32,485 nt of DNA, taken from the IMG/VR virus record IMGVR_UViG_3300017753_000047, positions 1-32,485 of that record; one strand, written 5' to 3'. Shown here in pieces: positions 1,400-23,100 of the stretch. Made by a program: the position numbers and the translations under genes. This DNA is from a virus (taxonomy: Duplodnaviria > Caudoviricetes). The notes beneath the pieces are model-generated. The model was given only the letters and a program-made list of their open reading frames with translations, ran no database searches and was not told the origin of the DNA. Position 1 is the stretch's first letter. The number at the start of each line of letters is the position of its first letter.

Positions 1400-1599
1400 T
1401 AGTAACCACCACGTTGTAGGAATCTTAGACCAGCATAAACACTTACACCAATGATAATTATACCGGCAGCGTCAAGAAAAAAGCTTGCACCAGCAGCACA
1501 CATCATAGCTAGAATAAAACTAGTCATATCTGATCTTCTTTGTGTAGGTGATTGATCTACACCTTCATCACTAAATAATAATTTACTTATGTTCCCCAT
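1399..1599 (-). CDS. Small hypothetical membrane protein (66 aa)
   Basis: Hydrophobic stretch FILAMMCAAGASFFLDAAGIIIIGVSVYAGLRFL. TAATG stop/start coupling to gp62. Confidence 0.7.
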   Translation of the reverse strand: MGNISKLLFSDEGVDQSPTQRRSDMTSFILAMMCAAGASFFLDAAGIIIIGVSVYAGLRFLQRGGY

Positions 1600-1877
1600 A
1601 GTTCTACACCTCCACCATAACTATCTAAGTCTAATTGTTCTTCTAACATTTCACGTGTAAAGTCAAGTGTTTGAACTTTATTTAGATGTGTTTTATTCCA
1701 GTATAATTGTGGTACTGTTTTGTGGTTATTCAATCGAAGAAACGCCAGTGCTTGTACGTTTTCTTTGATGTTTACCACATCATACTGATAACCCCAACCC
1801 GAAAGTTTCATTTTCATAACATCACAATATTCACAATTATGCTGTGTGTAAAGTGTTAATTTAGGTGAACTGGACAT
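1587..1877 (-). CDS. Glutaredoxin / NrdH-like redoxin
   Basis: CEYC redox motif after LTLYTQ, and TVPQ cis-Pro motif. Start re-called to ATG 1877 (MSSSPK), which has GGAGGT 8 nt upstream and overlaps the gp44 stop. The track start at 1958 lies deeper inside gp44. Confidence 0.88.
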   Translation of the reverse strand: MSSSPKLTLYTQHNCEYCDVMKMKLSGWGYQYDVVNIKENVQALAFLRLNNHKTVPQLYWNKTHLNKVQTLDFTREMLEEQLDLDSYGGGVELWGT

Positions 1878-2802
1878 TAGCCATAACCTCCGTAAGACAT
1901 GCAACAACATTAAGTTCGTGGTCTGCAACAAAAGCATTCTTGTATTGGTAGTCAGCAAGAATAAGAACTATTTGAGGAATCGATTGCGGTGATACTTTAT
2001 CATTCATTCGATCGTATATAGCTCGAAAGATTGCAGATGCATCTGTATCTATATTATTGACAACCCAGGCACGCATTTTCTTGAAGTCTTTATTTTTCAA
2101 ATGAGTAAAAAGATCATCGAAGTTTTTATCGTTGAGGTTAACCAATATAGACGAATCAATACGTACACCACCGGATGAATGCCTTTGCAATTCACCAAGT
2201 ACTCTGCGCCAATCAGGTGCAAATTTCATAATCAGTTCGGCGAGAACTTTACTATCAAAAGATACTTCTTCTTTGTATAGGATATTCGCTGCGCGGTCCA
2301 TGAACTCACCGCACAGTTGTACCATATCTTTTTTGGAAGTATTGAATTCATACACACCACATCTTGAGTGGAGTGGTTCAATGATTCGATTCTTAAAATT
2401 ACATGTAAGAATAAATCGACAATTGTTTGAGAACTCTTCGATAAAACCACGGAGAGCTGGCTGAAACGATTGTGGATTGAGATAATCTGCCTCATCAAGT
2501 ATGACAACCTTGTAGCCACCTTGTAATGAAACAGTAGAAGCGAACTGCTTGATTTTAGTTCGCAGTGTATCAATATTGCCTTCTTCGGAACCGTTAATGA
2601 CAATGTAGTCGAGGTCTAGTGATTTACACAGAGCTCGAGCTACAGTTGTCTTACCGAGTCCGGCGGTACCGGTGAAAAGCATGTTTTGCAACTCACCGGT
2701 GTCCACCATCTTCTGGAAGGTATTCTTAAGTGACACTGGTAAGATAGTGTCAGCAATAGTTTGCGGGCGATATTTTTCAACCCATAGAAATTCAACAGAC
2801 AT
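1861..2802 (-). CDS. 44: Clamp loader AAA+ ATPase subunit (gp44)
   Basis: WVEKYRP, Walker A GTAGLGKTT, Walker B ILDEAD, SRC motif (LHSRC). Confidence 0.97.
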   Translation of the reverse strand: MSVEFLWVEKYRPQTIADTILPVSLKNTFQKMVDTGELQNMLFTGTAGLGKTTVARALCKSLDLDYIVINGSEEGNIDTLRTKIKQFASTVSLQGGYKVVILDEADYLNPQSFQPALRGFIEEFSNNCRFILTCNFKNRIIEPLHSRCGVYEFNTSKKDMVQLCGEFMDRAANILYKEEVSFDSKVLAELIMKFAPDWRRVLGELQRHSSGGVRIDSSILVNLNDKNFDDLFTHLKNKDFKKMRAWVVNNIDTDASAIFRAIYDRMNDKVSPQSIPQIVLILADYQYKNAFVADHELNVVACLTEVMANVQFT

Positions 2803-3811: not shown

Positions 3812-5526
3812 CTACTTTTTACCATCTTACTAAAGTTTTTATCTTTGACAAATTCAATCTTGTTATTGAACCTGCCGTCGAGTATTTCGCCTTTGTGAGA
3901 TATGACAAAAACATTTGTATCATCGCCAAGAGTATATAGAATCTTAATAAGATTTTCTACACCTTCGTGGTCAAGTGATGAATCAAACGTTTCATCGAGC
4001 AATAACAAATTAGTGGCAACCGAGTTCTTCATCTTAGCAATCTGTCTCCAAGTAAACAGAAGTGCCAAATCAATTCTTTGTTTTTCACCTTCACTAAATG
4101 AGTCATATGTAAACTCATCTCTATGTCTTGACCGAATCGTTTCTTGGAATGATTCGTCAAGGTTGAAATGCACGAAAAAATCGAGCACTTGTAGATACTG
4201 GTTAACGAGCTTATTTATCACAGGCAAATATTGCTTAATAATTTTTGTCTTGATGCCAGTGTCTTTCAACATTTCGTGGATAACATTATTATAACTAAAC
4301 TGGTCTGACAGTTTTAGTTTATGTTCCATCATATTATTCTTGTCTGTATTATACACAGACAAATCTTCTCTGGCTTTATCTAGATCTACAGAGACTTCTT
4401 TATCCAAAAACTTTTGGAATTCTGCGATATCTCGTTGGAGTTTCGAAATCTCTTGCGAGTTGGCAGTGAGTTGATGTACCCGATCTCGAAGCGTTGAAAG
4501 TATGCGAGTCTGCTCATCAATCTCCGATTCCACGCCCTGGCCTTCAACTCCGATTTGCTTGAGCGCTGCCTTCCCCCTATCCTGAGATTCCTTGGTTGTG
4601 CGTAAAATCTCATGTTTATGGCCGTCTGAAATGGCTTGGTCGCATACGGGACACGCCTCATTCTCTTCGAAAAAGGTGATCCGCTTACCGATGTCGCCGA
4701 GACGCGTTTGCCTATCTTGACTTCGGAGGAGTAGGTCCTGCTTCCTATCCTGTAGCAATCGCAACCTTTGTTCGGTTTCTGATACAGATTCATCGAGTCC
4801 GACGCTAAGCTCACTATTCTTAGCCTGTAGTTCATCGATGAGATTCTGCGATGCTTGAATCTTAAGTTCATATTGGTTCCTACTTTCATTTGTAAGAGCT
4901 GTAATATCTGTAATGTATTTTGTTTGTGTTTCGATTTTGTTTTTTATAATATCAATTTGGTAGTTAACGTCTTTTATATTTTCTTTGAGTTGTGCGTTTC
5001 TTTCTCGTAAAATAATATTCATCTTAGAGAAAACATTAATGTCCAGAAGATCCTCGATCACTTCTCTCCTGATACCAGCTGGCAGTTGCATGAATGGGAT
5101 AAATGAGGAGCTACCCAATACTACAACCTGATGAAAGCTTTTGTGGTTCAGTTTTAAGATATTCTGTTCAAGGATCTTCTGGTACTCTTTTGCATGTGAT
5201 GACTGGTTTATCATCACATCATTCTTCCAAATCTCAAATACGTTTGGCTTTATGCCTCTACATATCTTAAACTTGTTTCCACCAACATTAAACTCAACTT
5301 CAACTAAACAACCTTTATTGTTAATTGAGTTAATAAGTTGGTCTTTCTTAATATTACGGTGTGCTTTACCAAATAGACTAAATGATAACGCGTCAAGCAT
5401 TGTAGATTTGCCAGCGCCATTGTGACCAACTACAAGCGTTGTTTTATCGTTATCCAAATCTATTTCAGTAAATGTATTTCCGGATGATAGAAAGTTTTTA
5501 TAACGTATAGTCTTAAAATTAATCAT
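3784..5526 (-). CDS. 46: Recombination endonuclease ATPase subunit (gp46, Rad50/SbcC-like)
   Basis: Walker A GHNGAGKST, zinc hook CPVC in the coiled coil, signature FSEGEKQR, Walker B/D-loop LLLDETFDSSLD, H-loop ISH. Confidence 0.97.
   Translation of the reverse strand: MINFKTIRYKNFLSSGNTFTEIDLDNDKTTLVVGHNGAGKSTMLDALSFSLFGKAHRNIKKDQLINSINNKGCLVEVEFNVGGNKFKICRGIKPNVFEIWKNDVMINQSSHAKEYQKILEQNILKLNHKSFHQVVVLGSSSFIPFMQLPAGIRREVIEDLLDINVFSKMNIILRERNAQLKENIKDVNYQIDIIKNKIETQTKYITDITALTNESRNQYELKIQASQNLIDELQAKNSELSVGLDESVSETEQRLRLLQDRKQDLLLRSQDRQTRLGDIGKRITFFEENEACPVCDQAISDGHKHEILRTTKESQDRGKAALKQIGVEGQGVESEIDEQTRILSTLRDRVHQLTANSQEISKLQRDIAEFQKFLDKEVSVDLDKAREDLSVYNTDKNNMMEHKLKLSDQFSYNNVIHEMLKDTGIKTKIIKQYLPVINKLVNQYLQVLDFFVHFNLDESFQETIRSRHRDEFTYDSFSEGEKQRIDLALLFTWRQIAKMKNSVATNLLLLDETFDSSLDHEGVENLIKILYTLGDDTNVFVISHKGEILDGRFNNKIEFVKDKNFSKMVKSSVQPVLSVV
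4386..4871 (-). CDS. Candidate overprinted gene in the +1 frame of gp46 (161 aa, Arg/Ser/Lys-rich)
   Basis: Stop-free +1 frame. AGGA 6 nt upstream of ATG 4871. GC about 52-58% in two sampled 60-nt lines inside versus about 22-30% in two flanking lines. Confidence 0.45.
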   Translation of the reverse strand: MNLRFKHRRISSMNYRLRIVSLASDSMNLYQKPNKGCDCYRIGSRTYSSEVKIGKRVSATSVSGSPFSKRMRRVPYATKPFQTAINMRFYAQPRNLRIGGRQRSSKSELKARAWNRRLMSRLAYFQRFEIGYINSLPTRKRFRNSNEISQNSKSFWIKKSL

Positions 5527-6587
5527 GCAATCTCTAAAGCCTGTGCTTCTGTCATAAGTTCACGCATCTGGATCTTGATTCGATCTTTATCTAAGTCAGT
5601 ATCCACAGCATCTATATATGTATCAACAATTTCTTGTGTATCATCAAAGTTTATGTTATCATCTATTCCAACATTTTCGCCAACAAACTCGTTGAAGTTC
5701 TCAGCAATCTTGAGTTCATGTATATCCTGATTCTGTATACGATCTATAAACCTATCGAATATAAAAGAATCTGTCTTGTTCACTACTACGACCTTGACAA
5801 ACTTACCATCAAGGTTTGTTACGTTATAGTTATTATAATCCATTTCGTTGTCATTGTAAAGGATTTTATGAAATAAAGTGTAAGGATTAAGCACTTTTTC
5901 TATTTCACGGCTTTCAGTATCGATAACATGAAAATATTTTGGATCGTGAGCATCCGACCAGAAGAATTCCATTTGGCTGCCAAGATACCAGATATTATCT
6001 CTACGAGAAGCAACATGGTAGTGGCCTGTCAAAACCATTTCAAAACGAGAAAAAGTCTTGTGATCCATGCCATGTGTATTCTTAATGCCTCTCATTACTT
6101 CAAACCCATTAAGTTCCAAGTGACTACCGAGCCAGTCTGCTTCACAGGTAGAAATAAACTTCATAGACTCTTCGTAGTTCTCGTTATTAATCCAAGGCAG
6201 CATTGCTATCTTTAACGAGCCGTATTCCAATACGGTAGGTTCCATGACAATGTGTATCTCATTCATATAATGACCAAGACATTCTTTTAGAGAATTCAAA
6301 TCATTTGTATTCTTGAAATACGTATCATGATTCCCGGGTATAATATCCATCTTCATACCATACTTGCGTAGAGGATCTAGAAAATGTTTACGATTATGAT
6401 TTAGCGCTTTGAAGTTTACAAATTTCCTGTGGTCATAATAGTCGCCCAGGTGTATGATTTGTTCGATTCCGTTTTCTCGACAGTAAGGAAAAAAGATTTC
6501 TGAGTAAAAATCTGCTGCATTTTTGAGAAATATTTCGGAAGAGTTACGTATACCGCAATGTGTGTCATTTAATACTGCTACTTTCAA
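5523..6587 (-). CDS. 47: Recombination endonuclease nuclease subunit (gp47, Mre11/SbcD-like)
   Basis: Metallophosphoesterase motifs DTH, GDYYD, GNHD, GHYH, YLGS. Confidence 0.97.
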   Translation of the reverse strand: MKVAVLNDTHCGIRNSSEIFLKNAADFYSEIFFPYCRENGIEQIIHLGDYYDHRKFVNFKALNHNRKHFLDPLRKYGMKMDIIPGNHDTYFKNTNDLNSLKECLGHYMNEIHIVMEPTVLEYGSLKIAMLPWINNENYEESMKFISTCEADWLGSHLELNGFEVMRGIKNTHGMDHKTFSRFEMVLTGHYHVASRRDNIWYLGSQMEFFWSDAHDPKYFHVIDTESREIEKVLNPYTLFHKILYNDNEMDYNNYNVTNLDGKFVKVVVVNKTDSFIFDRFIDRIQNQDIHELKIAENFNEFVGENVGIDDNINFDDTQEIVDTYIDAVDTDLDKDRIKIQMRELMTEAQALEIA

Positions 6588-7809: not shown

Positions 7810-9284
7810 TTAATCTCCACCTTAATTGTTTGATACTGAAACTCTTCTTTTTGGTACATCTTCAACCTTTCAAAGGAATGTAATAATGAAAAATTCTTTT
7901 TAGTCTTCCAGCTTAAATCGTCTGATATATCGTAGAGCTCCGTAACTCTACCGTCGTCACTTTTTCTTAAACCTCTACCTATACTCTGCAACACTCTTAT
8001 CTGCGATTTACTTGGTGATGCAAATATTATATTGTGTAGGTTCCTAATATTTATCCCTGTTGAAAAGGTACCGAGTGAAGCAACTGTAATAGAATCTTTT
8101 TGTTTTTCCACTATGCCACGTATTGCTTCTCTATCTGTGGTATCTGTTTCTCCTGCAACAAAGAATACTTTCCTTCCTTCTTCTACCTTTCTATCTATTA
8201 AATCAAAAAGGACCTTACCGTGCTGTTCTACTCTTTGAAACAATACCAGTGTATTACCATTAAGGCTCGTGGCTAGGTTTCGTATGAATCGATTCCTGGC
8301 TTCATGGCGGACAATGTACTCGATCTCATCCTGATATGTTCGTTTACCAAACTCCTTACGTACTTCTTCTGCATAATCAAGTACGACTCTTTTAATTTTG
8401 AGCTTGGCGAGAGTATCGTTATCCTGTAAGGACTTGGTTGAGGTAACGCGGTATATTGCTCCGAAGAGACCTTGAAGTGCCAACTCATGTGTTTGACTTC
8501 CATCGAGTGTTCCTGTGGTTCCATATCTATACTCCGCTTCTGTTGCTTTGTTCATAATAGACATTAAAGACTTTGACTTAAATCCATGGCACTCATCACC
8601 GAATATTACGCCAAACTTTGCAAACCATTGCCTAGGCAGTTTATATATCGATTGCCACGTGCTAATTATAATTCTTTTATTCGTTACTTTATCCTTACCA
8701 GAATATATCCTATGGACCATGTTATCCGAGTCCATACCGTATTCCTTAAAGTCATTCGTTAATTGTTCAACCAATGAGGTAGTCGGTACAATAATCAATG
8801 CACTCTTATCGTGGTTGTGGAGGTACCATCTCATAAGTGCGTATATGATAAGTGATTTACCCGATCCAGTAGGTGACAATAAAATCGCGCGTTTTCGATG
8901 TACGCCTGTTGACACAGCATCGAACTGGTAGTCACGTATTTCATAAGGTAGATTAAGTCTTTTGATAAATGAGTAGAGTTCTTCTACATCTACTTTGTTG
9001 TATTGTTCTACTTCACCATACTTGTCATCGTCATAACAAGCGAGCTCGTATCCACGTTGTTCTACAAATTTAAGTAAGTGTAAATATAAGCCGGCTGGTA
9101 GTTCGCCGGTGGATATATTATACAGACGAATCTTTCCATCCCACATTCTATTGCGGAATGCCGGCATGAATTTGTAACCGGGTACATAGAACGAGAAAAA
9201 CTCGTTGAGTTCTTGTGCTACACCTGATTCACAATCAACATGCATATTAGCATGATTTAAAAGCCTGACTCGAATTGTTTCCAC
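7806..9284 (-). CDS. uvsW: SF2 DNA helicase UvsW
   Basis: RDYQ, SPTGSGKS, DECH, TGT, STGINI.NLHNIIFASP, QSIGRGLR. GTG start. Confidence 0.97.
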   Translation of the reverse strand: METIRVRLLNHANMHVDCESGVAQELNEFFSFYVPGYKFMPAFRNRMWDGKIRLYNISTGELPAGLYLHLLKFVEQRGYELACYDDDKYGEVEQYNKVDVEELYSFIKRLNLPYEIRDYQFDAVSTGVHRKRAILLSPTGSGKSLIIYALMRWYLHNHDKSALIIVPTTSLVEQLTNDFKEYGMDSDNMVHRIYSGKDKVTNKRIIISTWQSIYKLPRQWFAKFGVIFGDECHGFKSKSLMSIMNKATEAEYRYGTTGTLDGSQTHELALQGLFGAIYRVTSTKSLQDNDTLAKLKIKRVVLDYAEEVRKEFGKRTYQDEIEYIVRHEARNRFIRNLATSLNGNTLVLFQRVEQHGKVLFDLIDRKVEEGRKVFFVAGETDTTDREAIRGIVEKQKDSITVASLGTFSTGINIRNLHNIIFASPSKSQIRVLQSIGRGLRKSDDGRVTELYDISDDLSWKTKKNFSLLHSFERLKMYQKEEFQYQTIKVEIK

Positions 9285-9759: not shown

Positions 9760-11505
9760 CTATTCGAATACATAAGCTCTTGGGTAATAAGTTGGATCCC
9801 ATGTAGCATTTCCTTGAGAGGCTAATAAGCTATTACCTTCCAAACATAAGCCAACACCAAAGTTTCCGTTTTGAACGCTTGTAAAGTCATCGGCTGATTT
9901 ACCTAATGTGAATTCTAATGATCCGTCAGATATTTTATAAACGTATATAACACCTGATACGCCACCACCGGCCAAACCACCACCGCCACCGTTATCTTCT
10001 TTAAAGTTCGATACATAATAATGTGTGTCACTTATTTCGACATAGAGACCAAAATTACCATTAGTAATAGCAACAGGTGCTGCATGTGATCTTACTTGAG
10101 TTACATTAGCCCAATTATCTGATGTAGTGTAAAGAAAGACTTTACCAGCACCACCTGCTCCAGTATCTTCACCTGGTGCACCTATAATAGCATAGTTACC
10201 TTTTAGTGCTACACCGCCACCAAACTGATCGTAATTAGATCCAGAAGCTTGTTCTGGGTTGGCAATTGTTTTTACTAATGATCCATTTGTTGTATTATAA
10301 ATGTATGCTTCTCCTCTTTGAGTAGTGCCTCCATCTTTTTCTGCAGTAATAAATCTACTAATAGATTCGTCCACACTAATATCGACTCCAAAATATCCAC
10401 CTGATCCTGGAGTAGTTATTACGTAATTTTGATTGCCATTTGAAAGAGCAAAACTTCTAATATATCCGCCGTTGTGGCCTATGTATATATTCGAATCAGT
10501 CATTTGTATATCTGACCAAGTCCCCGGCCAAGCTTGAGTAGTAGAACCCCCGCTTAGTTCACTATATTGGTGATCCCATGCCAATGAACCATCACTAATA
10601 TTAAATACCCTCAATTGGCCCTGTGAAGTACCTCCATTACCTTGTTCACCTATAGCATATTTACCGGCAGTTGTGTTAACAGCAACTTGTTGTCCGAGAA
10701 AAGAATAATGTGTTTGAACATGAGTTCTTATTGCTGTTGAGCCAGAACCTGTGTAACTGTAAAGATATGCTTTACCTTTATTACTATCATGGGCTGGTGC
10801 GCCAATAATTATATGTCCGGAACTAATATCAAGACTAGAAAAGACACTAGTACCACCACCTTGGCTGGTGTTTCCCCATTTAATCAGCCCACTTTCACCC
10901 TCAATATAAAATAATGGATTGCCACCAGATGGACCAAAAGATAAAGTAAATGTATTTTGAACTGATGCTACACTGATTCCATCGCTTGCTTTAAATGTTA
11001 ACGTAGCTGATCCGTCAGATCCTAAGGTAGCGGCTGAATCTGCAGTTCGTGGAGTAATAGTTACTACACTTGAATCTCTCGAAACAGTGGCAAACTTAAA
11101 TAGATCTCCACCCGATTCAAGACTTAGTTCTGGTGTAGTGCCATCAGAGTCGGCAGCTGTCATTGTAACAGTAGTTGCTGACCCCGGCGTAAGGGCAATT
11201 GTTCCTGTACTACTTAATGACAAGGTTGGAGTTGCGTTGATAGATGCAACATTATACCAGCCTGAACCATTGGAAATGTATAGTCTTTTATTTGAAGTAA
11301 GATAAGCTTGCTGGCCTGCTGATAAGCCAGTCATGGGCAATGTACCAAGAGAATCATAGACCGTCACGCCTACAGTACCTATAATATTGCTAATGTTCGC
11401 AGAATCAGTAACAGTAACGGCGTCGCCATCGAGCAATGATACACGGTCAGGATTTAATGCTTCTGATCTTCCGACCATCATTGCAAAATCTCTAGCTTTA
11501 GTCAT
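9760..11505 (-). CDS. Virion-associated beta-propeller protein, paralog 1 (shared N-terminal module, divergent propeller)
   Basis: Module NGSGWYN...ESGGDLFKFAT...ATLTFKASDG, then repeats IIGAP...G..YLY and FG..V. Confidence 0.8.
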   Translation of the reverse strand: MTKARDFAMMVGRSEALNPDRVSLLDGDAVTVTDSANISNIIGTVGVTVYDSLGTLPMTGLSAGQQAYLTSNKRLYISNGSGWYNVASINATPTLSLSSTGTIALTPGSATTVTMTAADSDGTTPELSLESGGDLFKFATVSRDSSVVTITPRTADSAATLGSDGSATLTFKASDGISVASVQNTFTLSFGPSGGNPLFYIEGESGLIKWGNTSQGGGTSVFSSLDISSGHIIIGAPAHDSNKGKAYLYSYTGSGSTAIRTHVQTHYSFLGQQVAVNTTAGKYAIGEQGNGGTSQGQLRVFNISDGSLAWDHQYSELSGGSTTQAWPGTWSDIQMTDSNIYIGHNGGYIRSFALSNGNQNYVITTPGSGGYFGVDISVDESISRFITAEKDGGTTQRGEAYIYNTTNGSLVKTIANPEQASGSNYDQFGGGVALKGNYAIIGAPGEDTGAGGAGKVFLYTTSDNWANVTQVRSHAAPVAITNGNFGLYVEISDTHYYVSNFKEDNGGGGGLAGGGVSGVIYVYKISDGSLEFTLGKSADDFTSVQNGNFGVGLCLEGNSLLASQGNATWDPTYYPRAYVFE

Positions 11506-11516
11506 CTACAAATTCC

Positions 11517-13316
11517 TTACGATAAATAGTTCACGTAAACTGCACCAGCATTTGAATTGGTTGCAGTTTCTGTATATGCACCTGCGATTATAATCTTTCC
11601 ATCATTACTAATTGAAACACCATCACCGAAACGTCCTACTTGCTGTGAAGCTTGTCTTAACTTTACCTGTTGAGCCCATGTACTACCACTAGTATTTTTG
11701 AATACGTATACTGCACCTGATGTACCAGAACCACCGCCGTCAACACCGAAAGCTGTAATGGCAACATGTGATCCATCTGCACTAATATCAACACGCCATC
11801 CAAACTGATCGTTTACTGCAGGATCACTGGCAACAATTTTTGCGTCTTGTGACCAAGATGTACCTGTTCTTTTGAAAATATAAGCTGCACCTGAGTTTGA
11901 ACCACCGGTGTCTTCTTGATATGCTCCTACAATAGCTACTGTTCCATCTGTACTATTAATAGCTACATCATTGCCAAACTCATCATCTAATCCTATATCA
12001 CTCGAAACTATTCTAGCTTCTTGAGCCCAGCTAGTGCCTGTTCTTTTGAATATGTATGCAGCACCATAATCTTCACTGTTTGACGAATTGTCCTCTTTCC
12101 AAGCTCCAAAAATAGCTCGAGTTCCATCAACATCTATGTCGCATGAATTAGCAAATTGTTCAGAGGTTGTACCTCCAGTTGCAGTTAGCTTTGCTTGTTG
12201 AGCCCACGTATGAGTACTACCTTGGTAATATATATATGCCGCTCCTGTATTCGAACCATCCATTGGTGAACAACCTATGATATAATTTCCGTCACCACTG
12301 ATACCTACAGATCTTCCATGTCTATCGTAGTTTGCTTTGTCTGATGCAGTCAAAGTCGGACTACCAGATGCATTACTCCATGTAGATCCTGATCTTGTTC
12401 TTACAACTAGTTCACCACGAGTATCGCCTCCTTGAGCCGCAGAAGGTTTACCAGCAACTATAATTGATCCATCATCACTTATCGCGCAATCACCGGGATT
12501 GCCAGCATCTCCCATGCTGCCTTCTGTATTTTTATATTCTCGTGTCCAACTATTAGTTGCACCTTGATAAACTTCAAGTTCGCCACCGGTTGCAGACATG
12601 ACTACAAACCTAGTGCCGTCTGAGTTAATGTCATTACGAATACCGAAGTAATCGTATGCTGTACCATCAGGATTCGGGATTCTGTGTTGAGCTGTAGTGC
12701 CGGTCCAGTCGGGACCAAAAGATAGTGTAAAAGTATTTTGAACTGAAGCAACGCTGATACCATCACTTGCTTTAAATGTCAATGTGGCTGAACCGTCTGA
12801 ACCTAATGTAGTAGCAGAATCTTCAGATCGAGGAGTAATAGTAACTACTGATGAATCTTGTGATATTGTGGCAAACTTGAATAGATCACCACCAGATTCA
12901 AGTGTTAACGATAAGTTTGCATTTGAGTTATCAGAATCCGTAGCAGTCATTGTGATAGTAGTAGCTGATCCTGGAGTCAATGCAATAGTACCAGAAGAAC
13001 TAAGAGATAAAACCGGAGTAGCATTAATTAACGCTATGTTGTACCAACCACTGCTTGTTGCATCACCACTTACAGTGTATAATCTGTTCGTGCCTGTTAC
13101 AAAAGCTTGTGTTCCTGCTGGCAAACTTGCTGCAGAAATAGGACTAACGGGTAAAGAATCAATAGTAGAATAGATATTCATAGCCGTTGTGTTTAATATG
13201 CCACTGACTATTGATGAATCTGCAACAGCATCACCTAAATCTACACCGGGACTATTATCTATGTTAGCTGCTTCGGTTCTACCGAGAATCGCAGCTATGT
13301 TTCTCATTTTGGTCAT
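11517..13316 (-). CDS. Virion-associated FG-GAP-type beta-propeller protein, paralog 2
   Basis: Shared module, then repeats FG..V.IS.DG....GA...GAAYIF.R.G..W.Q. Confidence 0.85.
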   Translation of the reverse strand: MTKMRNIAAILGRTEAANIDNSPGVDLGDAVADSSIVSGILNTTAMNIYSTIDSLPVSPISAASLPAGTQAFVTGTNRLYTVSGDATSSGWYNIALINATPVLSLSSSGTIALTPGSATTITMTATDSDNSNANLSLTLESGGDLFKFATISQDSSVVTITPRSEDSATTLGSDGSATLTFKASDGISVASVQNTFTLSFGPDWTGTTAQHRIPNPDGTAYDYFGIRNDINSDGTRFVVMSATGGELEVYQGATNSWTREYKNTEGSMGDAGNPGDCAISDDGSIIVAGKPSAAQGGDTRGELVVRTRSGSTWSNASGSPTLTASDKANYDRHGRSVGISGDGNYIIGCSPMDGSNTGAAYIYYQGSTHTWAQQAKLTATGGTTSEQFANSCDIDVDGTRAIFGAWKEDNSSNSEDYGAAYIFKRTGTSWAQEARIVSSDIGLDDEFGNDVAINSTDGTVAIVGAYQEDTGGSNSGAAYIFKRTGTSWSQDAKIVASDPAVNDQFGWRVDISADGSHVAITAFGVDGGGSGTSGAVYVFKNTSGSTWAQQVKLRQASQQVGRFGDGVSISNDGKIIIAGAYTETATNSNAGAVYVNYLS

Positions 13317-13621
13317 CCGATACCCTTTTCAGCATAATAGTCTCGAAAGCGTTTTAGCAAAAGAGGCGTACCTTTTTTCTTACGTCGATCATGTACAGTT
13401 CTTGTTTTGAATCTTGGACCCATTGCGGTGTCAGCTGGATTAGGTATAGCACCTGTATTCACTGTTGGCGCATCTTCTTTTACATCGTCTTTTTTATCAA
13501 GATACGCGGCAATCGCCATCTGCCTACGTTTGGCTTTTGACTTACCTTTGAACTGTGGAGCTTTTGATTTGTAAAAATCTTTTACGTAATCTCCAGCGTC
13601 TGCATTTTTACCTAGTGGCAT
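13313..13621 (-). CDS. Small basic hypothetical protein (102 aa)
   Basis: Lys/Arg-rich, with motifs APQFKGKSK.KRRQMAIAA and VKEDAPT. Overlaps the next start (ATGA). Confidence 0.8.
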   Translation of the reverse strand: MPLGKNADAGDYVKDFYKSKAPQFKGKSKAKRRQMAIAAYLDKKDDVKEDAPTVNTGAIPNPADTAMGPRFKTRTVHDRRKKKGTPLLLKRFRDYYAEKGIG

Positions 13622-13632
13622 TCTAATTATCC

Positions 13633-15408
13633 TTAACCTGCTTCGAAGATATATGCGGCACCTTGAGCGGAATTAGGTGAAGTTGTTTCATACTGTGATC
13701 CACAAATTGCAAAAGAAGCATCGGTACTAAGATACACGCTATTGCCAAAATAATCACTGGTAGCCTTATCAGCTGCTTGTAATTTTCTAACTTGAGACCA
13801 AGTGGTACCGTCTCTATTAAAAATATATGCGGCACCAGCCTCGCCACCACCAGTACCTTCATAATGAGCACCAACAATAACATAATTACCGTCATTGCTT
13901 ATATTCGAGCTCCATCCAAAGTGATCGTTTGCGCCTATATCTGTTGATTGAATTTTTTGTTGTTGAGACCAAGTAGTACCTGATCTTGAAAAAATGTAAG
14001 CTGCACCAGCATTACTTCCACCAGTTTCCGAACCCCATGCGCCGGCAATAACATAATCTCCAGCACCACTTATTGATACACTAACACCTAAATGATCACT
14101 TACGCCTTGATCACTTGCTACAATTTTTTGTTGTTCTGACCAAGTAGTACCAGATCTACTAAATACATGAACTGCACCGTAATCCATATTGTTATCGCCG
14201 TATGCTCCAATAGCAATATAAGTCCCATCTGAATTAATTGAAGCACTATAGCCAAAATAACCATTTACAATTGCACCGGACCCATTTATCTTTTGTTGCT
14301 CTGACCAACTGGTACCTGATCTTATAAAGACATAAGCCGAACCGGAGCTACTTGCAGTGCTATCCTCATCCTTTGCACCAACAATAATATAAGTACCATC
14401 ATTGCTTATATCTACACTCCATCCAAAAGCATCACCTGTTCCTGCGTTGCTTGCAGTTAATTTGGCTTGTTGTGTCCAACTTGTACCAGATCTTATGTAA
14501 ACATATGCTGCTCCATTAGCATTTTGGTATCTTGCACCAACTACAGCATAAGTACCATCAGAACTCATTGCGACACTATATCCAAAAATACCATTAGCCA
14601 TTGCATCAGATGCTTTAAGCATCTGTTGTTGAGACCATGATGAACCAGATCTTACGTAAACATATGCTGCACCTGCACCGGATCCGCTAGTGTCTTCACT
14701 AATAGAACCAACAATTGCGTATGCACCATCATTGCTTATAGCCACAGAAGTTCCGAAATAATCATTACTGCTTGGATTATCTGCTAACACTTTACTTTCA
14801 GTATAACTAGCAGACCAATCAGGACCAAATGTTAGTGTAAAAGTATTTACTACTGATCCAAATGATATACCATCGCTTGCTTTAAATGTCAGTGTAGCTG
14901 ATCCATCATATCCTAAAGTAGTGGCAGAATCTTCTGATCGTGGAGTAATAGTAACTACTGATGAATCTCGAGATACCGTAGCAAACTTAAATAGATCACC
15001 GCCAGACTCTATTGATAGTGTTAAATTAGCACTTGCATGATCAGAATCTAAAGCAGTCATAGTAATAGTGGTAGCCGTACCATCAGAAGACAATGCAATT
15101 GTACCTTCACTACTTAGTGTTAATCTAGGAGTTGCGTTTATAAGAGCTACATTATACCAGCCGCTTCCGTTTGAAATGTACAACCTACTTTGCCCAGCTG
15201 CACCAGCTGATTCTACAAATGCTTGATCGCCTGAAATTAAACCAGTAACTGGCAATGCACCTACAGAATCATAAGCAGTAACTCCTATTGCGCTTACTTG
15301 TGCAGAATCTAGACCAACACTAGAATTGGTATTTAACAAAGCAACATTATTAGTATTACTCGCTTCAGTTGCACTGAGTATTGCAGCTATGTCTCTTGTT
15401 CTACTCAT
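13633..15408 (-). CDS. Virion-associated FG-GAP-type beta-propeller protein, paralog 3
   Basis: Shared module, then seven regular blades (F/L)G.S..(I/M/L)(S/N)..G.Y.IVGA...GAAY(V/I)(F/Y).RSG..W.QQ.K. Confidence 0.88.
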   Translation of the reverse strand: MSRTRDIAAILSATEASNTNNVALLNTNSSVGLDSAQVSAIGVTAYDSVGALPVTGLISGDQAFVESAGAAGQSRLYISNGSGWYNVALINATPRLTLSSEGTIALSSDGTATTITMTALDSDHASANLTLSIESGGDLFKFATVSRDSSVVTITPRSEDSATTLGYDGSATLTFKASDGISFGSVVNTFTLTFGPDWSASYTESKVLADNPSSNDYFGTSVAISNDGAYAIVGSISEDTSGSGAGAAYVYVRSGSSWSQQQMLKASDAMANGIFGYSVAMSSDGTYAVVGARYQNANGAAYVYIRSGTSWTQQAKLTASNAGTGDAFGWSVDISNDGTYIIVGAKDEDSTASSSGSAYVFIRSGTSWSEQQKINGSGAIVNGYFGYSASINSDGTYIAIGAYGDNNMDYGAVHVFSRSGTTWSEQQKIVASDQGVSDHLGVSVSISGAGDYVIAGAWGSETGGSNAGAAYIFSRSGTTWSQQQKIQSTDIGANDHFGWSSNISNDGNYVIVGAHYEGTGGGEAGAAYIFNRDGTTWSQVRKLQAADKATSDYFGNSVYLSTDASFAICGSQYETTSPNSAQGAAYIFEAG

Positions 15409-15418
15409 TTATTTTTCC

Positions 15419-17161
15419 TTAAGGTGTATAGTAAACTAAGAACCGGCCTTCGTGATTTGACGAATTACCATAATCATTTCCTACTAGTAGGTATTTGCCG
15501 TTACCACTAAATCTTATACTTCTATAGCTAAAATGCCTTGGGTATCCACCTGAAGAACTACTTGCATCAGATGGTTGAAGAGTTTTAACTAGTGACCAGC
15601 TCGTACCTGATCTTTGATAAATAAACACTTTACCAGAAACTGAGTTACTGCCGTTTTCAGCACCATAAGCACCAACTGCCATTAAGGTTCCTTCATCGTT
15701 TATTGTACAACACTCACCTACGGCAGAGTATGAGCTATAGCCACTAGTTGGATATGCCAAAAGTTGTGATGACCAGCTTGTTCCTGATCTAAAATACACG
15801 TTCACTGATCCGGATTGGTTAACAGTTCGATCATCAGCCGCTGCACCAATTACTAGATATTCTCCAGTAGAATTCATAGCTATTGAAGATCCAAAATAAG
15901 ATTTTGTAGAGTTTGATGCTGGTGGTTCAATTATTGTTTGATAAGACCATGTGCTTCCACTTCTAGTCCAAACCTCTACAGCACCATCGAACTCTCCTCC
16001 AGCATAACCTTTCTGAACAGTTGCTGCTACATAAGTAGCGTCAGAATTCAATGCAATCTTTTGTAGATGGGCACCTCCCATTTGGGCCCAATCTTGTGCA
16101 AGGTTAGGTAGTATCTTTGCTTGTTGTGTCCATGAAGTACCAGATCTAGTGAATACATATAGTGCACCTCTAGAAGTGTTTGAAGTATCATCACCCGGTG
16201 CGGCCATAACCGCATAAGTTCCGTCACTATTCAACAAAGCGCCGATACCAAATTGATCATTATCTGCTGCATCACTTGCAGCTAGAGTTGCTTCATGTGA
16301 CCATGTAGTACTTGATCTTGAATATACGTATGCTTTACCACGGTTGCTACCACCTTCATCGTTATAATTGGAGCAAATGATAAGCCGGTTAGCGTCATCA
16401 TCTAAATCTATTCCCATTCGCCCAGCTTGCGCATCCGAGGCGTTATGTGCACTAGTCATAGTTACAACTTGTTGAGATGCCCAAGTATTTGTAGAACTTC
16501 TCAAATAAACATGAACTTTGTTTTGCCCAAATTCCGGCACAGCTAAGTGTGTTCCAGTTTGGCTAATTGTTTGCTGTTCACCGCCAAAATAACCATTAGT
16601 GTTAGTACCTGTCACTATAGTTTCATTAAGTGTTGCAGTCCAATCAGGTGTAAATGATAATGTGAATGTATTTACTACTGATCCAATACTTATTCCATCG
16701 GTTGCTTTGAAAGTAAGTGTCGCTGATCCGTCAAATCCTAATGTTGTCGCTGAATCTTCAGATCGTGGAGTAATTGTTACAACGGATGAATCCTGAGATA
16801 CTGTGGCAAACTTAAATAGATCTCCACCAGATTCTACTGATAGTGTTAAATTGCCACTGGCGTTATCAGAGTCTAAGGCAGTCATAGTAATAGTGGTAGC
16901 CGAACCATCAGTTGCCAAAGCAATTGTACCTTCACTACTTAATGTTAATCTAGGTGTGGCATTAATTAATGCTACGTTATACCAGCCAGATCCATTTGAA
17001 ATGTATAATCTACTTTGCCCGGAAGCACCGGCTGATTCTACAAATGCTTGATCGCCTGAACTTAAACCAGTACTTGGTAATGCACTTACAGAATTATATA
17101 CTGTTGTACCTATACCTGCTGCACTTGCACCACTACTTCTTATGTCTGTTAAATTTGTCAT
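15419..17161 (-). CDS. Virion-associated FG-GAP-type beta-propeller protein, paralog 4
   Basis: Shared module, then blades with RSG(T/S)(S/T)W repeats. Confidence 0.85.
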   Translation of the reverse strand: MTNLTDIRSSGASAAGIGTTVYNSVSALPSTGLSSGDQAFVESAGASGQSRLYISNGSGWYNVALINATPRLTLSSEGTIALATDGSATTITMTALDSDNASGNLTLSVESGGDLFKFATVSQDSSVVTITPRSEDSATTLGFDGSATLTFKATDGISIGSVVNTFTLSFTPDWTATLNETIVTGTNTNGYFGGEQQTISQTGTHLAVPEFGQNKVHVYLRSSTNTWASQQVVTMTSAHNASDAQAGRMGIDLDDDANRLIICSNYNDEGGSNRGKAYVYSRSSTTWSHEATLAASDAADNDQFGIGALLNSDGTYAVMAAPGDDTSNTSRGALYVFTRSGTSWTQQAKILPNLAQDWAQMGGAHLQKIALNSDATYVAATVQKGYAGGEFDGAVEVWTRSGSTWSYQTIIEPPASNSTKSYFGSSIAMNSTGEYLVIGAAADDRTVNQSGSVNVYFRSGTSWSSQLLAYPTSGYSSYSAVGECCTINDEGTLMAVGAYGAENGSNSVSGKVFIYQRSGTSWSLVKTLQPSDASSSSGGYPRHFSYRSIRFSGNGKYLLVGNDYGNSSNHEGRFLVYYTP

Positions 17162-17162
17162 A

Positions 17163-20100
17163 TTAGTTCTCTATTAACACCCATCCTTGAGTTGCATTGT
17201 AATATGCCAAACCAGTACCTGCTCTTGCTATATTTATAACTAAGTCTGAAGCAGCACCTTGTATATTATGGCCATTTCTAGAAACTGTAATGTTATTTGT
17301 TCCAGCATTTCCTGTTACATCAATAATTCTTATTTCATCGCCCATAGTTGCAGATGATGGTAAGGTTATGGTCCTTGCACCACCAGAAGTATCGATGAAT
17401 AGTTTATCCCCGGCCGCTGCAGATACTGTACCACTTGGCGCTGACCAAGTATTACTTCGAGTTATTTCTGATGTAGTTTCAAATGATGCAACTTTCAATT
17501 CATCGTTAATCGCCGCTCCAGTAAGTAACCTAATAGCCTTAGTATTTGATGCAGTATAGTCATCTGAATCGTTAAGCAATAATCCATTCAGGAATACTTG
17601 TATGTTGCCCGGCTCATAACTCATAAACCGGCCGGCCACATCATTACCACTAAATACTGTTTGACCTGAGTCTGCAGTAAATTTATATAATTCTAGTTTT
17701 GAACCCGGAGCAGAGAATGCTGATACTGATACATCATCCGCAGAATCTGTTGCGGTTGTTAGTACAATGCTATTACCGGTTGAAGCTGTAAAGTCTGAAG
17801 CTTCCTGTAATAGTATACCGTTTAAGTGTACTTGCAATGATCCCGGAACATATGCCAGTGTATTACCACTTAAATCAGAACCGCTAATAGTTGTAGCAGG
17901 AGTTGCAGTAGTATATTCAAACCTTTTGACTTGAGGTGTTACGATTACACCTTTGCTATTTTTAATTGTTACAATATCAGATGAATCTGTGGCAGAGACC
18001 AATGTAAGTGTAGTTCCGGCACCATTAATTGAGTAATCATCAGAATCTCTTAGAAGTATACCGTTAAGGAATACGTCCGCATATCCTTCTGAAACATCTA
18101 AGGTTGCACCTTTATCATCAGTACCTGTTATCGAAGTAGCAGGTGCTGCTGTAGTAAATGCAAAGATATTTTCAACTAATCCACGTTGTGTTATTACTTT
18201 ACCAGCTCTTTCAAGCACTGTTACTTGATGATTGGCAGCCACACCTGATGTAAATGTTACCGCACTTGAATCAATTGTATAGTCTGTTCCACTGACCTGT
18301 AAGATACCATTAAGGAAAACATCTGTATTTCCGGATACAAGAGATAACGTATTGTTAGTATCAAATACTCTTCTTCCAGAATCTGCTCCGCCGACTGTAA
18401 ACTCTGTCCGGTCATTATTAAATTCACCCGGCTGAGTGTTAGTTACACGAGCTAATATGTAATCTGAGTCTATAAGAAGAAGTGTTCTTTCAGAATCAAG
18501 AGAGTTAGCTTCAACATAGGCTGAATCAATTGTTCCGCCAGTTGTTTGTCTTAGTTGTATATACGAAGAATCAATTAACTGAGATGTAAGAGAGGAATCA
18601 AGTGCTTCACTCTTATTGGCTAATCTTATCCAGTTACCACCATGAGCAAAGTAACCTGCGCCAGTGGCATGAACATGGGCAAACATTCCATGATATGTTG
18701 AAGCTGATGGAAGATCTGCTTCAGCACTATACACATTGGCATATTTAATTTTATTTGCACCAAAGTCGATATCGCTATCGCCGATACGAGTTTGAAGTCT
18801 TACATATGCTGAATCGATAAGCTGTATCGTAAGAGCAGAATCTACTCCACCCGCCGCGTTTGCGGTTGCAACAATAAATGCTGAATCAGCGTAGTCAACT
18901 CCGACTTTTGGTATTTGGCTAATGATCCAAGATGAATCGGCAAAATCAGTACCTGTTACCGGTATTTGACTAATGATCCAAGCAGAATCCGCAAAGTCAG
19001 TACCTGTTACAGGAATACTTGGAAGATTCGTAAGTCTATTATAACTAAGGCCAACTGCATGTAATTGGACATGAGCTGAGTCAATTAAATTAATTGTTTC
19101 AGCAGAGTCTAGTAGTAGTTGTATCGCAATACTTGAATCGATTGCGTTTGCAGTAATAAGTTTTATCGCTTCCGCGGAATCAATAAAGTGAGTGCTTAAA
19201 CCTGGGATTGTTGGAGTATTAGTCAGTCTTGTATAACTTAATCCAACTGCGTGTAAATTCACATGAGCACTATCGATTAAGTTTAGTACCGTAGCCGAGT
19301 CTGTTCCTGCTCCAGCTCTTGCAGCTACATAGGCAGAATCAACAAGATTAATTACTTCAGCAGAATCAAGACTTATATTAGAACCTCGGAAGACGTTAAT
19401 ATCAAGAACATCGCCGGAATCAGCAGCATCTGTTAGAGTTAAAGTGGTTCCATTAGTTGCAGTAAAATCACTATCAGCTAGAAGTAAGATACCGTTAAGA
19501 TATACATTTGTTCTATCAGTACTTGAATATCTGAGTACTTCTCCATTCCTGTCTGCTCCGGTAAATGCTGTTTGACCAGAATCTGCGTTATATACAAAGT
19601 GTTTTGATTGGAAGTTAGATGTTGTATTATTGCCATCCATCTTCACAATTGTAAGAATATCAGCAGAATCAGCAGCAATCGTAAGATCTACCTTCGATGC
19701 GTTATGACTGAAGTCAGCATCACTCAATAATATACCATTAAGGAATACTTGTAGCTTACCAGAATCAATTGCCAATGTTCTGCTGTTATCGTCTGCTCCT
19801 GTAAACGTTACTTGACCAGAATCCGCAGTGTAAATGAAGTTTGTTAATTCGAATGGTGCAACACCAGTACCTCTTGCTTGGACATATGCTGAATCAATTA
19901 GCTGAGAAGTTAGTGATGAATCCAATCCACCGGCATCAGCAGATAAGATAAACTTGGAAGTACCAGCATCGTATTTAAGAATTTGACCTGCTGTAGGTAC
20001 ACCATAAGTTACGTTACTTAATGATCCAACACTATCAACATCTGATTTAGCATTAATAAGAGCCAGTAATGTATCCATAGCGGAATCATCATCATTTAAG

Positions 20101-23100
20101 GCTGCAGCTATTTCATTAAGAGTGTTGAGAGTACCAGGCGCACCATCAATTAGGTTATTAATTTGAAGTGTAATCCAAGCCGAGTCAGCAAAATCTGTAC
20201 CTGTTACTGGAATGGTAGGCGTATTAGCAAGAATATTATAATCCATGCCTTTTGCTTTAAGAGCAACATGAGCGCTATCGATCAGCTGTAGTACTGCGGC
20301 CGAGTCCGTACCCGCACCGGCTCGCGCGGTGACATATGCAGAGTCAATTAGATTAATTGCACTTGCTGAATCCAATCCAATATTACTACCTATGAAAGTA
20401 TTGACATCAAGCACATCACCTGAATCTGCACCATCTACAAGAGTAACTGTCGATCCATTTGTAGCTGTGAAGTCTGTGCCACTGATAAGCATGATACCAT
20501 TGAGGTATACGTTTGTTCTATTGAAGTTGCTATAAGAAAGAACGTTACCACTAGCATCTGCACCAGTAAATACTGTTTGTCCTGAATCAGCATTGTAGAT
20601 AAAGTGTTTCTGTTGGAATCCACTAACTCCAGAGTTACCACCTATCTTTACAACTGTTAGAATGTCTGCAGAGTCAGCGCCTATAGTTAGATCTACCTTA
20701 GTAGAATTATGGCTAAAGTCACTATCACTGAGTAATATACCGTTGAGGAATACTTGTAGCTTACCCGAGTCAACTGCTAGTACTGCACCATTTCTATCTG
20801 CACCAGTAAATGATGTTTGTCCAGAATCTGCAGCGTATATAAAGTTAGTAAGTATAAGAGGAGATACAGCTGTTACACTTTGCCTTGCTTGAACATGAGC
20901 AGAATCAATTAATGATATGGTAGCCGCAGAGTCAACACCACTGGCGCCACCGCCACCACCGGTAATATCGGTAAGTAATGCTATCGTACCACTTGAATCC
21001 GGTAAGCTAATTGTGTTATCTTTTGTAGGATTAACTGCCTGAACTTTTGTTTCATGAGCATTTGCCGAATCACCTTCGAACGCAACACTCGTAATACTGT
21101 TGATGTTTTGATCTAACGCTAATGTTACATTATTGGCGGCTATACCAGCATTGATTTGACCGGTAGTTCCTAAGAACGTTAATGTTTCGGAAGCAGTATT
21201 AAACGTATGTGAACCGGTATTAGCAGCAAGTGCAAATGTTCCACCACCAGTTGCTTGTCGTAATTGAATATATGCTGAATCTACTAACTGCGAGGTTAAA
21301 GCAGAATCTAATCCACTGGCGGATTGTCTTAACTGAACATATGAAGAATCGATTAACTGAGTGGTTAAAGCGGAGTCAAGGAAGTTAGCTACAATCCAAG
21401 CAGAATCGGCAAAGTCGGTACCAGTCTTTGGCATAAGAGAAGTGATCACTGCCGAGTCAATAAGCTGACCTCGTGCTTGAGTATTGACAGCGTTACCCAT
21501 ATATCCATGAGCAGAACACTGATAATGTAATACCGGAGGAGTTGCATCAGTGATAGTGATTTCAGTGTATGTTGCTGTAGAAGTTACGTTGGTTGTATAA
21601 GCAGTCAACTTTGCCGCATCTAGATAAAATCTAAATGGGTGACTAGTCATACTGCTAGAACTTAAAGTAAACCTATATGTGTTACCCGGTGATAGTAATA
21701 AGAAAGGAGATTCTTTACCATCAATCCAATAAGCTAAGCTAGATCCTGTGCTAGTATATCTATGTTGATCTGTTTTTGAATCAACAATAACTGATAGATT
21801 TACTGTACCAGAAGATGTGAATCCAATATAATCAACACTATCTAAATGAGCAATATTAAATTCATTTGCACTTAAAGTTGTGAAAGCACCTGTAGACTTT
21901 GAGTTTACACCAATTGCTGTGCTATCAATGGTGCCGCCATTAATATCTACTGTAGCGAATGTGCTTGTTCCTGTTGATACTACGTTACCACTTAAGTTAG
22001 CAGTAATAGTACCTGCATTAAGATTTGCTAGAGCCCAATCTGTTCCACCAACTTGGATAGTGTTATCAGTTGAATCGAGACCGTCTTGTACTAAATCATT
22101 AAATAAGTAATATTGAGAATTAGTTGCGTCTCTTACGAGACCGGTGTGCCTACTCGGTCCATTAGCACTCTCTGCATAATGACCAACAAAACCTATATCA
22201 AATATGTCACTAACACTTTGACTATCTGCAAGGTGAATAAGTGGATCTTTGATTCTTAAGTTATCTGAGTGAACTGTGGTTGTTGTTCCTGTTACAGTAA
22301 GACCTGCGAATGTTACAGAATCTGTAGTACGTAGTCCTTGATTCGATACACGTAATTGAGTATAAGCAGAATCAACTAGTTGTGTGATAAGACTCGAGTC
22401 AAGACCAACATCAGTTTGTCTTAGTTGAATATAGGAGGAATCGATTAACTGTGTTGTTAAAGCAGAATCCAATCCACCAGAACCAACACTAGATTGTCTT
22501 AACTGAATGTATGCAGAATCAATTAGTTGACTCGCTAAGGCAGAATCTAGACCAGTAGCATCTGTATTATCTAAGATGACAATATTGCCAACCATGCCAG
22601 AATGACTAGTGCATTGGTAAACTAACGAAGTTGGAGCATTCATGTCTGGAGTAAAGAGAATACTTCCAGTTTGAGCACCGTTATTAGTTACACCTGTGCT
22701 ATATGCTGAACCACCATCTGAAACTCTAATTTGGAATGGATGACCAGATACAGCCATGGCAAACTTATATGTTTTACCACGTGTAAGATATAAGGTAGGA
22801 TTATTACTACTTGATGAAAAGCCATCACCATTGAATGTATAAGCAGAAGAACCACTGTGTGTAACGTTAAAAACAGATTCAGGTGGCCTTCTTAATTCTA
22901 TATAGTCAGAATCAATTAACTGAGTAGTCAGTGCAGAATCAAGTCCACCAGTGCCGCCACTGGATTGTCTCAATTGAACATAAGATGAATCAACGAGTTG
23001 AGAGATTAGACTCGAGTCTAGAATATTTGGTGTGTTTGTAAAATTATTATAATCTAAATAATAGGAACCAGCTTGGCTTTGTAATTGAGTGGCGTTTATA

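Follow-up and report, generated by a model that had tools for sequence, protein, structure and literature searches.

A probable overprinted gene in the +1 frame of gp46, spanning the arms and zinc hook of a T4-like phage recombination ATPase

The arms and zinc hook of the recombination gene gp46 in a T4-like phage fragment carry a second, selected reading frame that very likely encodes a new accessory protein of about 142-161 aa. The openness of this +1 frame exceeds chance, selection acts on its amino acids in relatives, and the frame is very likely a real protein-coding gene, with the function of its product being the weakest step of the explanation. A preliminary description of this DNA, made from the sequence alone, had inferred a dual-coding region with a new basic protein, and this main inference has stood up, the openness of the +1 frame and its ATG at position 4871 being conserved and the silent sites of gp46 being suppressed.

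gp46 and Its Genomic Setting

The window, that is the whole 32,485-nt stretch that was analysed, is a fragment of a T4-like phage with its main genes all on the minus strand, these including structural and tail genes, uvsY, uvsW, a late sigma factor, gp47, gp46, gp45, the clamp loader, regA and hsp20. In its Walker A motif, its zinc hook and its gp47 and gp45 neighbours, gp46 (Table 1) resembles the T4 gp46/gp47 recombination nuclease (PMC2993671, available in part). The Rad50_zn_hook Pfam match in gp46 at 287-311 is sub-threshold, with C292 and C295 invariant in all 45 aligned gp46 sequences. The nearest gp46 proteins from cultured phages are those of phage C48C1 (52.5% identity) and Methylophilales phage Melnitz (46.9%), followed by those of cyanophages, and no psbA-type gene was found in five related records, four of which are incomplete. 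An in-frame stop lies inside the extracted span in 18 of 103 gp46 sequences (L029, L037, L040-L044, L073, L076 and others), representing either natural ends with read-on alignment or breaks.

Table 1. Coordinates of gp46, the nested +1 frame and associated features.
Feature	Position	Strand	Basis
gp46, Rad50/SbcC-like recombination ATPase, 580 aa	3784..5526	-	phrog_77, E 4.9e-162; Pfam SMC_N, E 3.9e-16
CxxC of the gp46 zinc hook (codons 292-295), lying under the central part of the +1 gene	4642..4653	-	Sequence and Pfam
+1 ORF of the preliminary description, 167 aa, gp46 codons 213-380	4386..4889	-	Open frame
Probable overprinted +1-frame gene, 161 aa, ATG 4871 to stop 4388-4386	4386..4871	-	Conserved ATG, selection on the +1 protein
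Constrained core, residues 1-142 (gp46 codons 219-360), coinciding with the GC rise	4446..4871	-	Diversity and rates
Likely start codon, ATG from gp46 Tyr219 TAT and the G of Glu220	4869..4871	-	TAT invariant
AGGA, Shine-Dalgarno-like, 6 nt 5' of ATG 4871, variable among relatives	4878..4881	-	Sequence, -4.7 kcal/mol
Upstream in-frame ATG 4889 and six extra codons, not a conserved start	4872..4889	-	ATG in 18/41
Sigma70-type promoter-like site in gp47, ~300 nt before gp46	5832..5860	-	Consensus match only
Second sigma70-type promoter-like site	7232-7204	-	Consensus match only
Other long +1 ORFs in the arm of distant gp46 types	L034:3638-4150, L020:3626-4144, L076:3620-4249, L043:3601-4086		No Pfam match

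Openness and Distribution of the +1 Frame

The 167-codon stop-free +1 frame reported in the preliminary description was borne out, the real run being longer at 185 codons (195-380). With the gp46 amino acids fixed and the codon usage of the replication genes, 7.9 stops are expected over codons 219-379 and the probability of finding none is 4e-5; the same openness has P = 1.3e-5 under a GC3-matched null and P = 7.5e-4 when the region's own synonymous codons are permuted. None of 5000 recoded gp46 genes contained a +1 run of at least 160 codons (maximum 144), and the gp46 run was the longest among the 31 window genes examined, the runner-up being a run of 127 codons in gp44. When all five alternative frames were compared, +1 was the only open one, having no stops in 41 of 41 sequences, where +2 had 15-20 and the antisense frames had 1-13. 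A codon-aligned antisense gene, which would mimic the codon-position pattern described below, was ruled out by the 6-10 stops present there in each of the 41 sequences.

Loci from relatives were collected both with gp46 queries and with ORF queries, the latter favouring open frames. Clade A comprises 130 distinct sequences including the window, all with the same arm type down to 55% nucleotide identity, after removal of duplicates, partial sequences and L132 (the window itself); most of its members were recovered with the ORF protein, which biases the set to open frames. The conservation of +1 openness across relatives, earlier suggested as a check, was seen in this clade, with no +1 stop over codons 240-360 in 129 of 130 members and the exception, L205, having the same +1 translation as L204 save one premature stop. 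A search with full-length gp46 gave 80 loci, four of which did not span the region and one of which was without a representative; in the other 75, all 12 clade A loci were open together with 23 of other types, and 40 were closed. A further search with the gp46-frame arm peptide, using patterns built from ORF-bearing members, gave 177 matches, and among the best 80 of these 78 cover the start, with 74 open and 4 broken. The four broken loci fall inside the open members as two separate losses, a placement with starred support, and gp46 remains intact and conserved after loss of the ORF. Together with the premature stop in L205, these four loci indicate that the gene is dispensable in some lineages.

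A gp46 match was present in all 310 loci tested, so that the range of the ORF (12 of 75 gp46-query loci) is narrower than that of the host frame. We infer that the gp46 frame is ancestral and the older of the two, with the +1 gene having a de novo origin on it. The +1 frame is closed in all eight cultured phages compared (C48C1, Melnitz, T4, P-SSM2, Syn33, Syn1, S-RIM2 and ACG-2014f) and none has the ORF, T4 and the seven others differing from the window in carrying 6-11 +1 stops over codons 210-380 and in having no nested gene in the gp46 annotation.

Selection on the +1 Protein

Among 26 clade A sequences the differences at the three gp46 codon positions were 0.18/0.09/0.49 before the ORF, 0.20/0.08/0.13 over it and 0.15/0.07/0.46 after it, the suppression of synonymous variation in gp46 that had been proposed as a check thus being found exactly over the ORF. 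The pN/pS of the +1 frame in 26 sequences was 0.39 over the ORF compared with 1.26 and 1.31 in the flanks. Third-position diversity was 0.02-0.25 at codons 221-360, with the other 10-codon windows at 0.35-0.59 save the last one at 0.21, and the rate of changes silent in gp46 and non-silent in +1 was 0.07-0.09 within the core as against 0.28 at codons 195-218 and 0.19 at codons 361-380. The onset of constraint is at codon 219 and its end near codon 360.

A site-class test drew on 53 disjoint pairs with 80-95% identity over the overlap, single-base differences being classified where they stood isolated. As the pairs share ancestry and are not fully independent, the rates should not be read as strict probabilities, though the same pairs show a large contrast with their flanks. 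In these pairs the rate of gp46-silent, +1-altering changes was 0.045 (411/9198), this same class reaching 0.209 and 0.222 in the flanks, as against 0.281 (123/438) for changes silent in both frames. Stop-making changes were absent from 762 chances in the overlap, compared with rates of 0.12 and 0.135 in the flanks. Changes altering gp46 occurred at 0.042 if silent in +1 and 0.009 if not, the direction being the same in 53 of 53 pairs over the overlap and in 21 and 30 of 53 in the flanks.

Properties and Possible Role of the Product

The +1 protein read from ATG 4871 has a pI of 11.65 and a charge of about +31, and the earlier statement that the product is very basic is correct as a description. 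The charge is mostly a by-product of the frame, however, with the +1 frames of 24 closed relatives being as basic (+29.9 vs +27.7), and as such net charge says little on function. Net charge was 27.9 observed against 22.5 expected and Arg 20.4 against 11.8, the Arg excess being measured against AT-rich codon usage. The protein also differs from closed +1 frames in its aromatics (16 vs 8) and its Gly+Pro (13 vs 4). Beyond what gp46 forces, 31 residues reach a conservation of at least 90% across 48 representatives; they include 7 Arg, 8 Ser/Thr, 5 Tyr, 3 Pro, 1 Trp and 1 Glu, with no Asp, His or Cys among them.

It is from this preponderance of Arg, Tyr/Trp, Ser/Thr and Pro among the unforced selected residues that nucleic-acid binding is predicted, and the conserved residues would fit a nucleic-acid-binding surface more than a metal enzyme. 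A nucleic-acid-binding accessory role is thus put forward tentatively, in which the product would be a soluble DNA- or RNA-binding accessory factor in phage DNA replication or host takeover. No membrane segment was found in 68 members (best 19-residue hydropathy 0.07-0.89), and a Cys within the first 35 residues, as sought for a lipoprotein, occurred in just 2 of the 68.

Searches of PHROGs and Pfam gave no family for the ORF, with weak matches of unknown function in at most 8 of 68 members in the former and scattered weak matches across the 68 members in the latter. Against solved structures there was one match at E 2 and none in a second search; the ORF protein had no match in cultured phages, none of 178 candidates in GTDB genomes, no usable match in the ESM Atlas and no occurrence inside any of 5924 longer proteins. 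Fifteen homologues among 1400 candidates, together with two cluster representatives, are without a name and resemble the same family. Two predicted folds were of low confidence (pLDDT 51 and 50), and searches with these models at pLDDT ~50 returned nothing at E <1 or Z >=5, a result that shows neither a new fold nor its absence.

Alternatively the product may act as a partner or regulator of its host protein, binding gp46 or the gp46/gp47 complex in the manner of lambda Rz1, which is embedded in the +1 frame of Rz and complexes with Rz (PMC6139136, available in part). In keeping with this the two proteins would have one mRNA and are inherited as one piece, and the arms of gp46 carry a slight negative charge (-4 and -3). 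Such a partnership, suggested by analogy, is nevertheless unlikely given that gp46 stays intact and conserved once the ORF is lost and that the frame is closed in so many of the gp46-query loci and in every cultured phage compared.

Likely Start of Translation and Proposed Expression

ATG 4871 is present in all 130 clade A members, most of which were found by ORF queries, and Tyr219 is encoded by TAT in all 130, with six other conserved Tyr codons mixing TAT and TAC (e.g., 62/67 and 73/51). The first stop downstream of this ATG falls at gp46 codon 363-380 in 129 of the 130. The AGGA that had been pointed out 6 nt before the ATG is in the sequence, and the ATG itself is kept throughout, but the exact AGGA (including AGGAG and AGGAGG) is confined to 48 of 130 members, with AAGG in 25, GAG or GAGG in 35 and none of these words in 22. 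Anti-SD pairing at the ATG of codon 219 averaged -3.95 in 48 representatives compared with -1.79 in recoded sequences; gene starts in the window average -5.3, and just 40% of the 48 reach -3.5 kcal/mol at ATG 4871. The internal ATG at codon 231 is also above the recoded null but weak (-1.24 vs -0.5), while those at codons 289 and 305 are not above it. Upstream, a stop lies two codons before ATG 4889 in 22 of 41 sequences and there is no constraint 5' of codon 219.

Translation of the +1 protein would accordingly begin independently at ATG 4871 of the gp47-gp46 mRNA, with early or middle expression from upstream sigma70-type promoters. The promoter-like sites at 5860 and 7232 match 11/12 and 10/12 of the consensus, 37 such sites having been found against a shuffle mean of 17.2, and judging from the consensus matches these two are the likely source of a shared early/middle mRNA. 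Among the RNA-library contigs, compared for 4 of 17 runs, some overlap 4334-5188 and 4610-4909, with small word shares, such contigs showing neither transcription, strand nor frame.

A ribosomal frameshift into +1, which would fuse the N-terminal half of gp46 to the +1 sequence with no separate protein, would be in keeping with the frame being open 5' of the ATG (from codon 195 in the window), with gp46 codon 285 reading TTT and the next base being T in all 130 clade A and all 9 group B sequences (mid-ORF in clade A) and with the +1 constraint in groups B, C and E lying mainly past codon 286 or 331. In clade A, however, constraint begins exactly at the invariant ATG and is even over codons 219-360, a stop stands at codon 211 in 86 of the 130 members, no shared slippery word was seen between codons 212 and 219 and anti-SD pairing is raised before the ATG, all of which renders a frameshift very unlikely compared with initiation at ATG 4871.

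Apparent Exchange of the Arm and Other gp46 Types

Relative to the window, the sequences L084 and L087 show 92-93% identity over the arm and 69-75% over the flanks. In trees of 96 representatives clade A requires one change on the arm tree, as against five, nine and six on the N-flank, C-flank and joined-flank trees, and an AU test restricted to 39 rows, which were selected once the tree was known, rejects a single clade A group for the flanks (p 8e-17). It appears that the dual-coding arm passes from one gp46 allele to another through recombination within the conserved ATPase flanks, intragenic mosaicism being already known among T4 relatives (PMC2993671, available in part).

Groups B, C, C2, D and E of gp46 have +1 frames open at the same place, the additional members having been recovered by searching with the ORFs of the groups themselves. 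No stop-making changes occur in groups B, C, C2 and E; constraint at the amino-acid level is clear mainly in the second half and is less strong than that of clade A, with rates of 0.09 and 0.06 over codons 286-375 in group C as against 0.20-0.25 and of 0.079 over codons 331-375 in group B. In group C an ATG is found at codon 213 in 17 of 17 sequences, often with a good SD. The +1 profiles of the other groups are no closer to clade A than is the +1 shadow of closed genes (probability 1-29% vs 79%), a comparison that fits separate origins of these ORFs and is no proof of them.

It is an evenly balanced question whether the T4-like Rad50-type arm is a recurrent gene birthplace, in which unrelated +1 proteins would arise independently, be swapped as cassettes via the ATPase flanks and be lost. 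Were this so, an essential core gene would hide a variable accessory locus, plausibly in a host arms race. A further +1 ATG at 4659-4661 (gp46 codon 289, Met71), just before the zinc hook, is present in 130/130 clade A, 9/9 group B, 17/17 group C and 5/5 group C2 sequences and in <70% of 24 closed genes; this ATG, which has no SD excess in clade A, may represent an older start or a second one.

GIY-YIG endonucleases have an invariant Gly after the second strand and a catalytic Glu in a later helix. A selfish GIY-YIG-like nuclease driving its own cassette between gp46 alleles would be consistent with the mobile-cassette pattern of the arm, and by eye the +1 protein bears a likeness to motifs of the family (Tyr-x-Ile, Val-Lys-Ile-Gly and an invariant Arg70). 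Such a nuclease is highly improbable, however, with a profile comparison against seven T4 GIY-YIG domains scoring 12.2 (probability 0.2%), below 9 of 60 column shuffles, with Gly54 in 52 and the candidate Glu108 in 39 of 68 members, and with no Pfam GIY-YIG match in the 68 at E up to 10.

The GC Rise and Loss of the Frame

The GC values quoted in the preliminary description for lines 4261, 4501, 4681 and 4921 are exact at 0.30, 0.517, 0.583 and 0.217. The match that had been drawn between the GC boundaries and the ORF holds in part, the rise coinciding with the core but ending, like the constraint, near 4446 and not 4386. GC is higher in the overlap than in the flanks in all 130 clade A members (0.42-0.50 vs 0.29-0.39), down to 55% identity.

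In the first of the two losses, L362, there are 2 stops and the overlap GC3 is 0.32, open loci having 0.39-0.54. The second, comprising L367, L368 and L372, has 6 stops, a GC3 of 0.09-0.11, differences by codon position of 5/1/17 and an overlap GC of 0.29 against flanks of 0.26-0.28; the lost lineages being AT-richer overall, as these flanks indicate, part of the GC fall is genome-wide, with the local excess gone in the second loss. That the GC excess vanishes with the ORF indicates that the GC rise follows the second gene and that a GC-rich donor is not needed. L362, L367, L368 and L372 are decaying overprinted copies in an intact gp46 and would be useful to time the relaxation of a dual-coding region.

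The recombined patch offered earlier as an alternative survives to the extent that gp46 alleles appear to trade the arm, but the GC excess tracks the ORF and is lost with it. A GC-rich gp46 patch from a donor, with the open frame as its by-product, would draw on the mosaicism of the arm seen in L084 and L087 and on stops being rarer at higher GC; it is barely credible given the result under the GC3-matched null, the persistence of the GC excess throughout clade A and its fall to flank level once the ORF is lost. Moreover, a sweep would depress every site class and doubly silent sites vary as in the flanks, by which the site-class test refutes it.

The other earlier alternative, a conserved RNA structure suppressing silent sites, has a negligible chance of being correct: silent sites in gp46 are indeed suppressed, and folding is stronger in the region than in its AT-rich flanks, but the folding z was 0.04 against 100 shuffles, the consensus fold of 22 sequences reached -6.9 kcal/mol over 453 columns with compensatory change in 1 of 28 pairs, and the constraint is in phase with the +1 codons.

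Comparison with Known Overlapping Genes

Same-strand nested phage genes with their own starts are known in phiX174, namely gene E in D and gene B in A, and the gp46 +1 gene is like these in its same-strand nesting with its own start. The genome of phiX174 is a tiny ssDNA one and its E is a membrane lysis protein, whereas the gp46 +1 product is predicted to be soluble.

The comparison with Rz/Rz1 made in the preliminary description holds for gene layout and for nothing beyond it. In both cases the gene of a coiled-coil protein contains, wholly within its +1 frame, a second gene of the sort that tends to be overlooked by gene callers (PMC6139136, available in part). The host here is a Rad50-like ATPase, an SbcC-like gp46, and not an inner-membrane i-spanin, there is no lysis context, and unlike the Rz1 o-spanin, with its lipobox (PMC6139136, available in part), the nested product is without a lipobox cysteine or hydrophobic segment.

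Overprinted viral frames almost all encode accessory proteins, biased to disorder, according to the part of a review available (PMC8227390). The gp46 case resembles the de novo overprinted genes described there in being a new frame on an older gene, in occurring in a subset of host-gene relatives, in its accessory nature and in having no confident fold; it differs from those genes, which in the available part of that review belong to small eukaryotic viruses <30 kb (PMC8227390), in lying across the zinc hook of a core recombination gene of a large dsDNA phage, in having been lost at least twice and in appearing to travel as a cassette. No published report of a gene nested in gp46 was found in the literature listings and abstracts covered. 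It is very likely that this represents a well-supported case of gene birth by overprinting in a core gene of a large dsDNA phage.

The locus offers natural controls, in losses that relax back and in sister alleles with other or no nested frames, such that the birth, exchange and loss of overlapping genes can be tested on one locus, and it adds a protein family without a named relative. In addition, mosaicism and dual coding can occur in gp46, which is a likely marker gene, and trees and dN/dS built on it are distorted as a result.

Other Features of the Window

A 123-codon +1 ORF in the clamp-loader gene gp44 (2232-2603, minus strand), examined as a control, is open in just 3 of 29 related sequences with normal third-position variation and is attributed to chance. 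Inside uvsW an 83-codon +1 ORF (8273-8524, minus strand), with GGAG before its ATG, is open in 3 of 19 sequences; about 70 of its codons are open in two 90% relatives, and third-position changes are few in the first 20 codons only. Two further ORFs of 90 and 68 codons (13623-13895 and 20435-20641, minus strand) lie inside long late genes and have no Pfam match.

A glutaredoxin gene (1587-1958, minus strand; Pfam E 4.6e-10) has a listed TTG start that overlaps the end of gp44, its true start probably being later. At 9760-17161 on the minus strand, after a late-promoter-like ATAAATA at 17238, lie four genes of 580-599 aa with similar N-termini, a GC3 of 0.18-0.22 and no PHROG match, which are probably a paralogous structural set.
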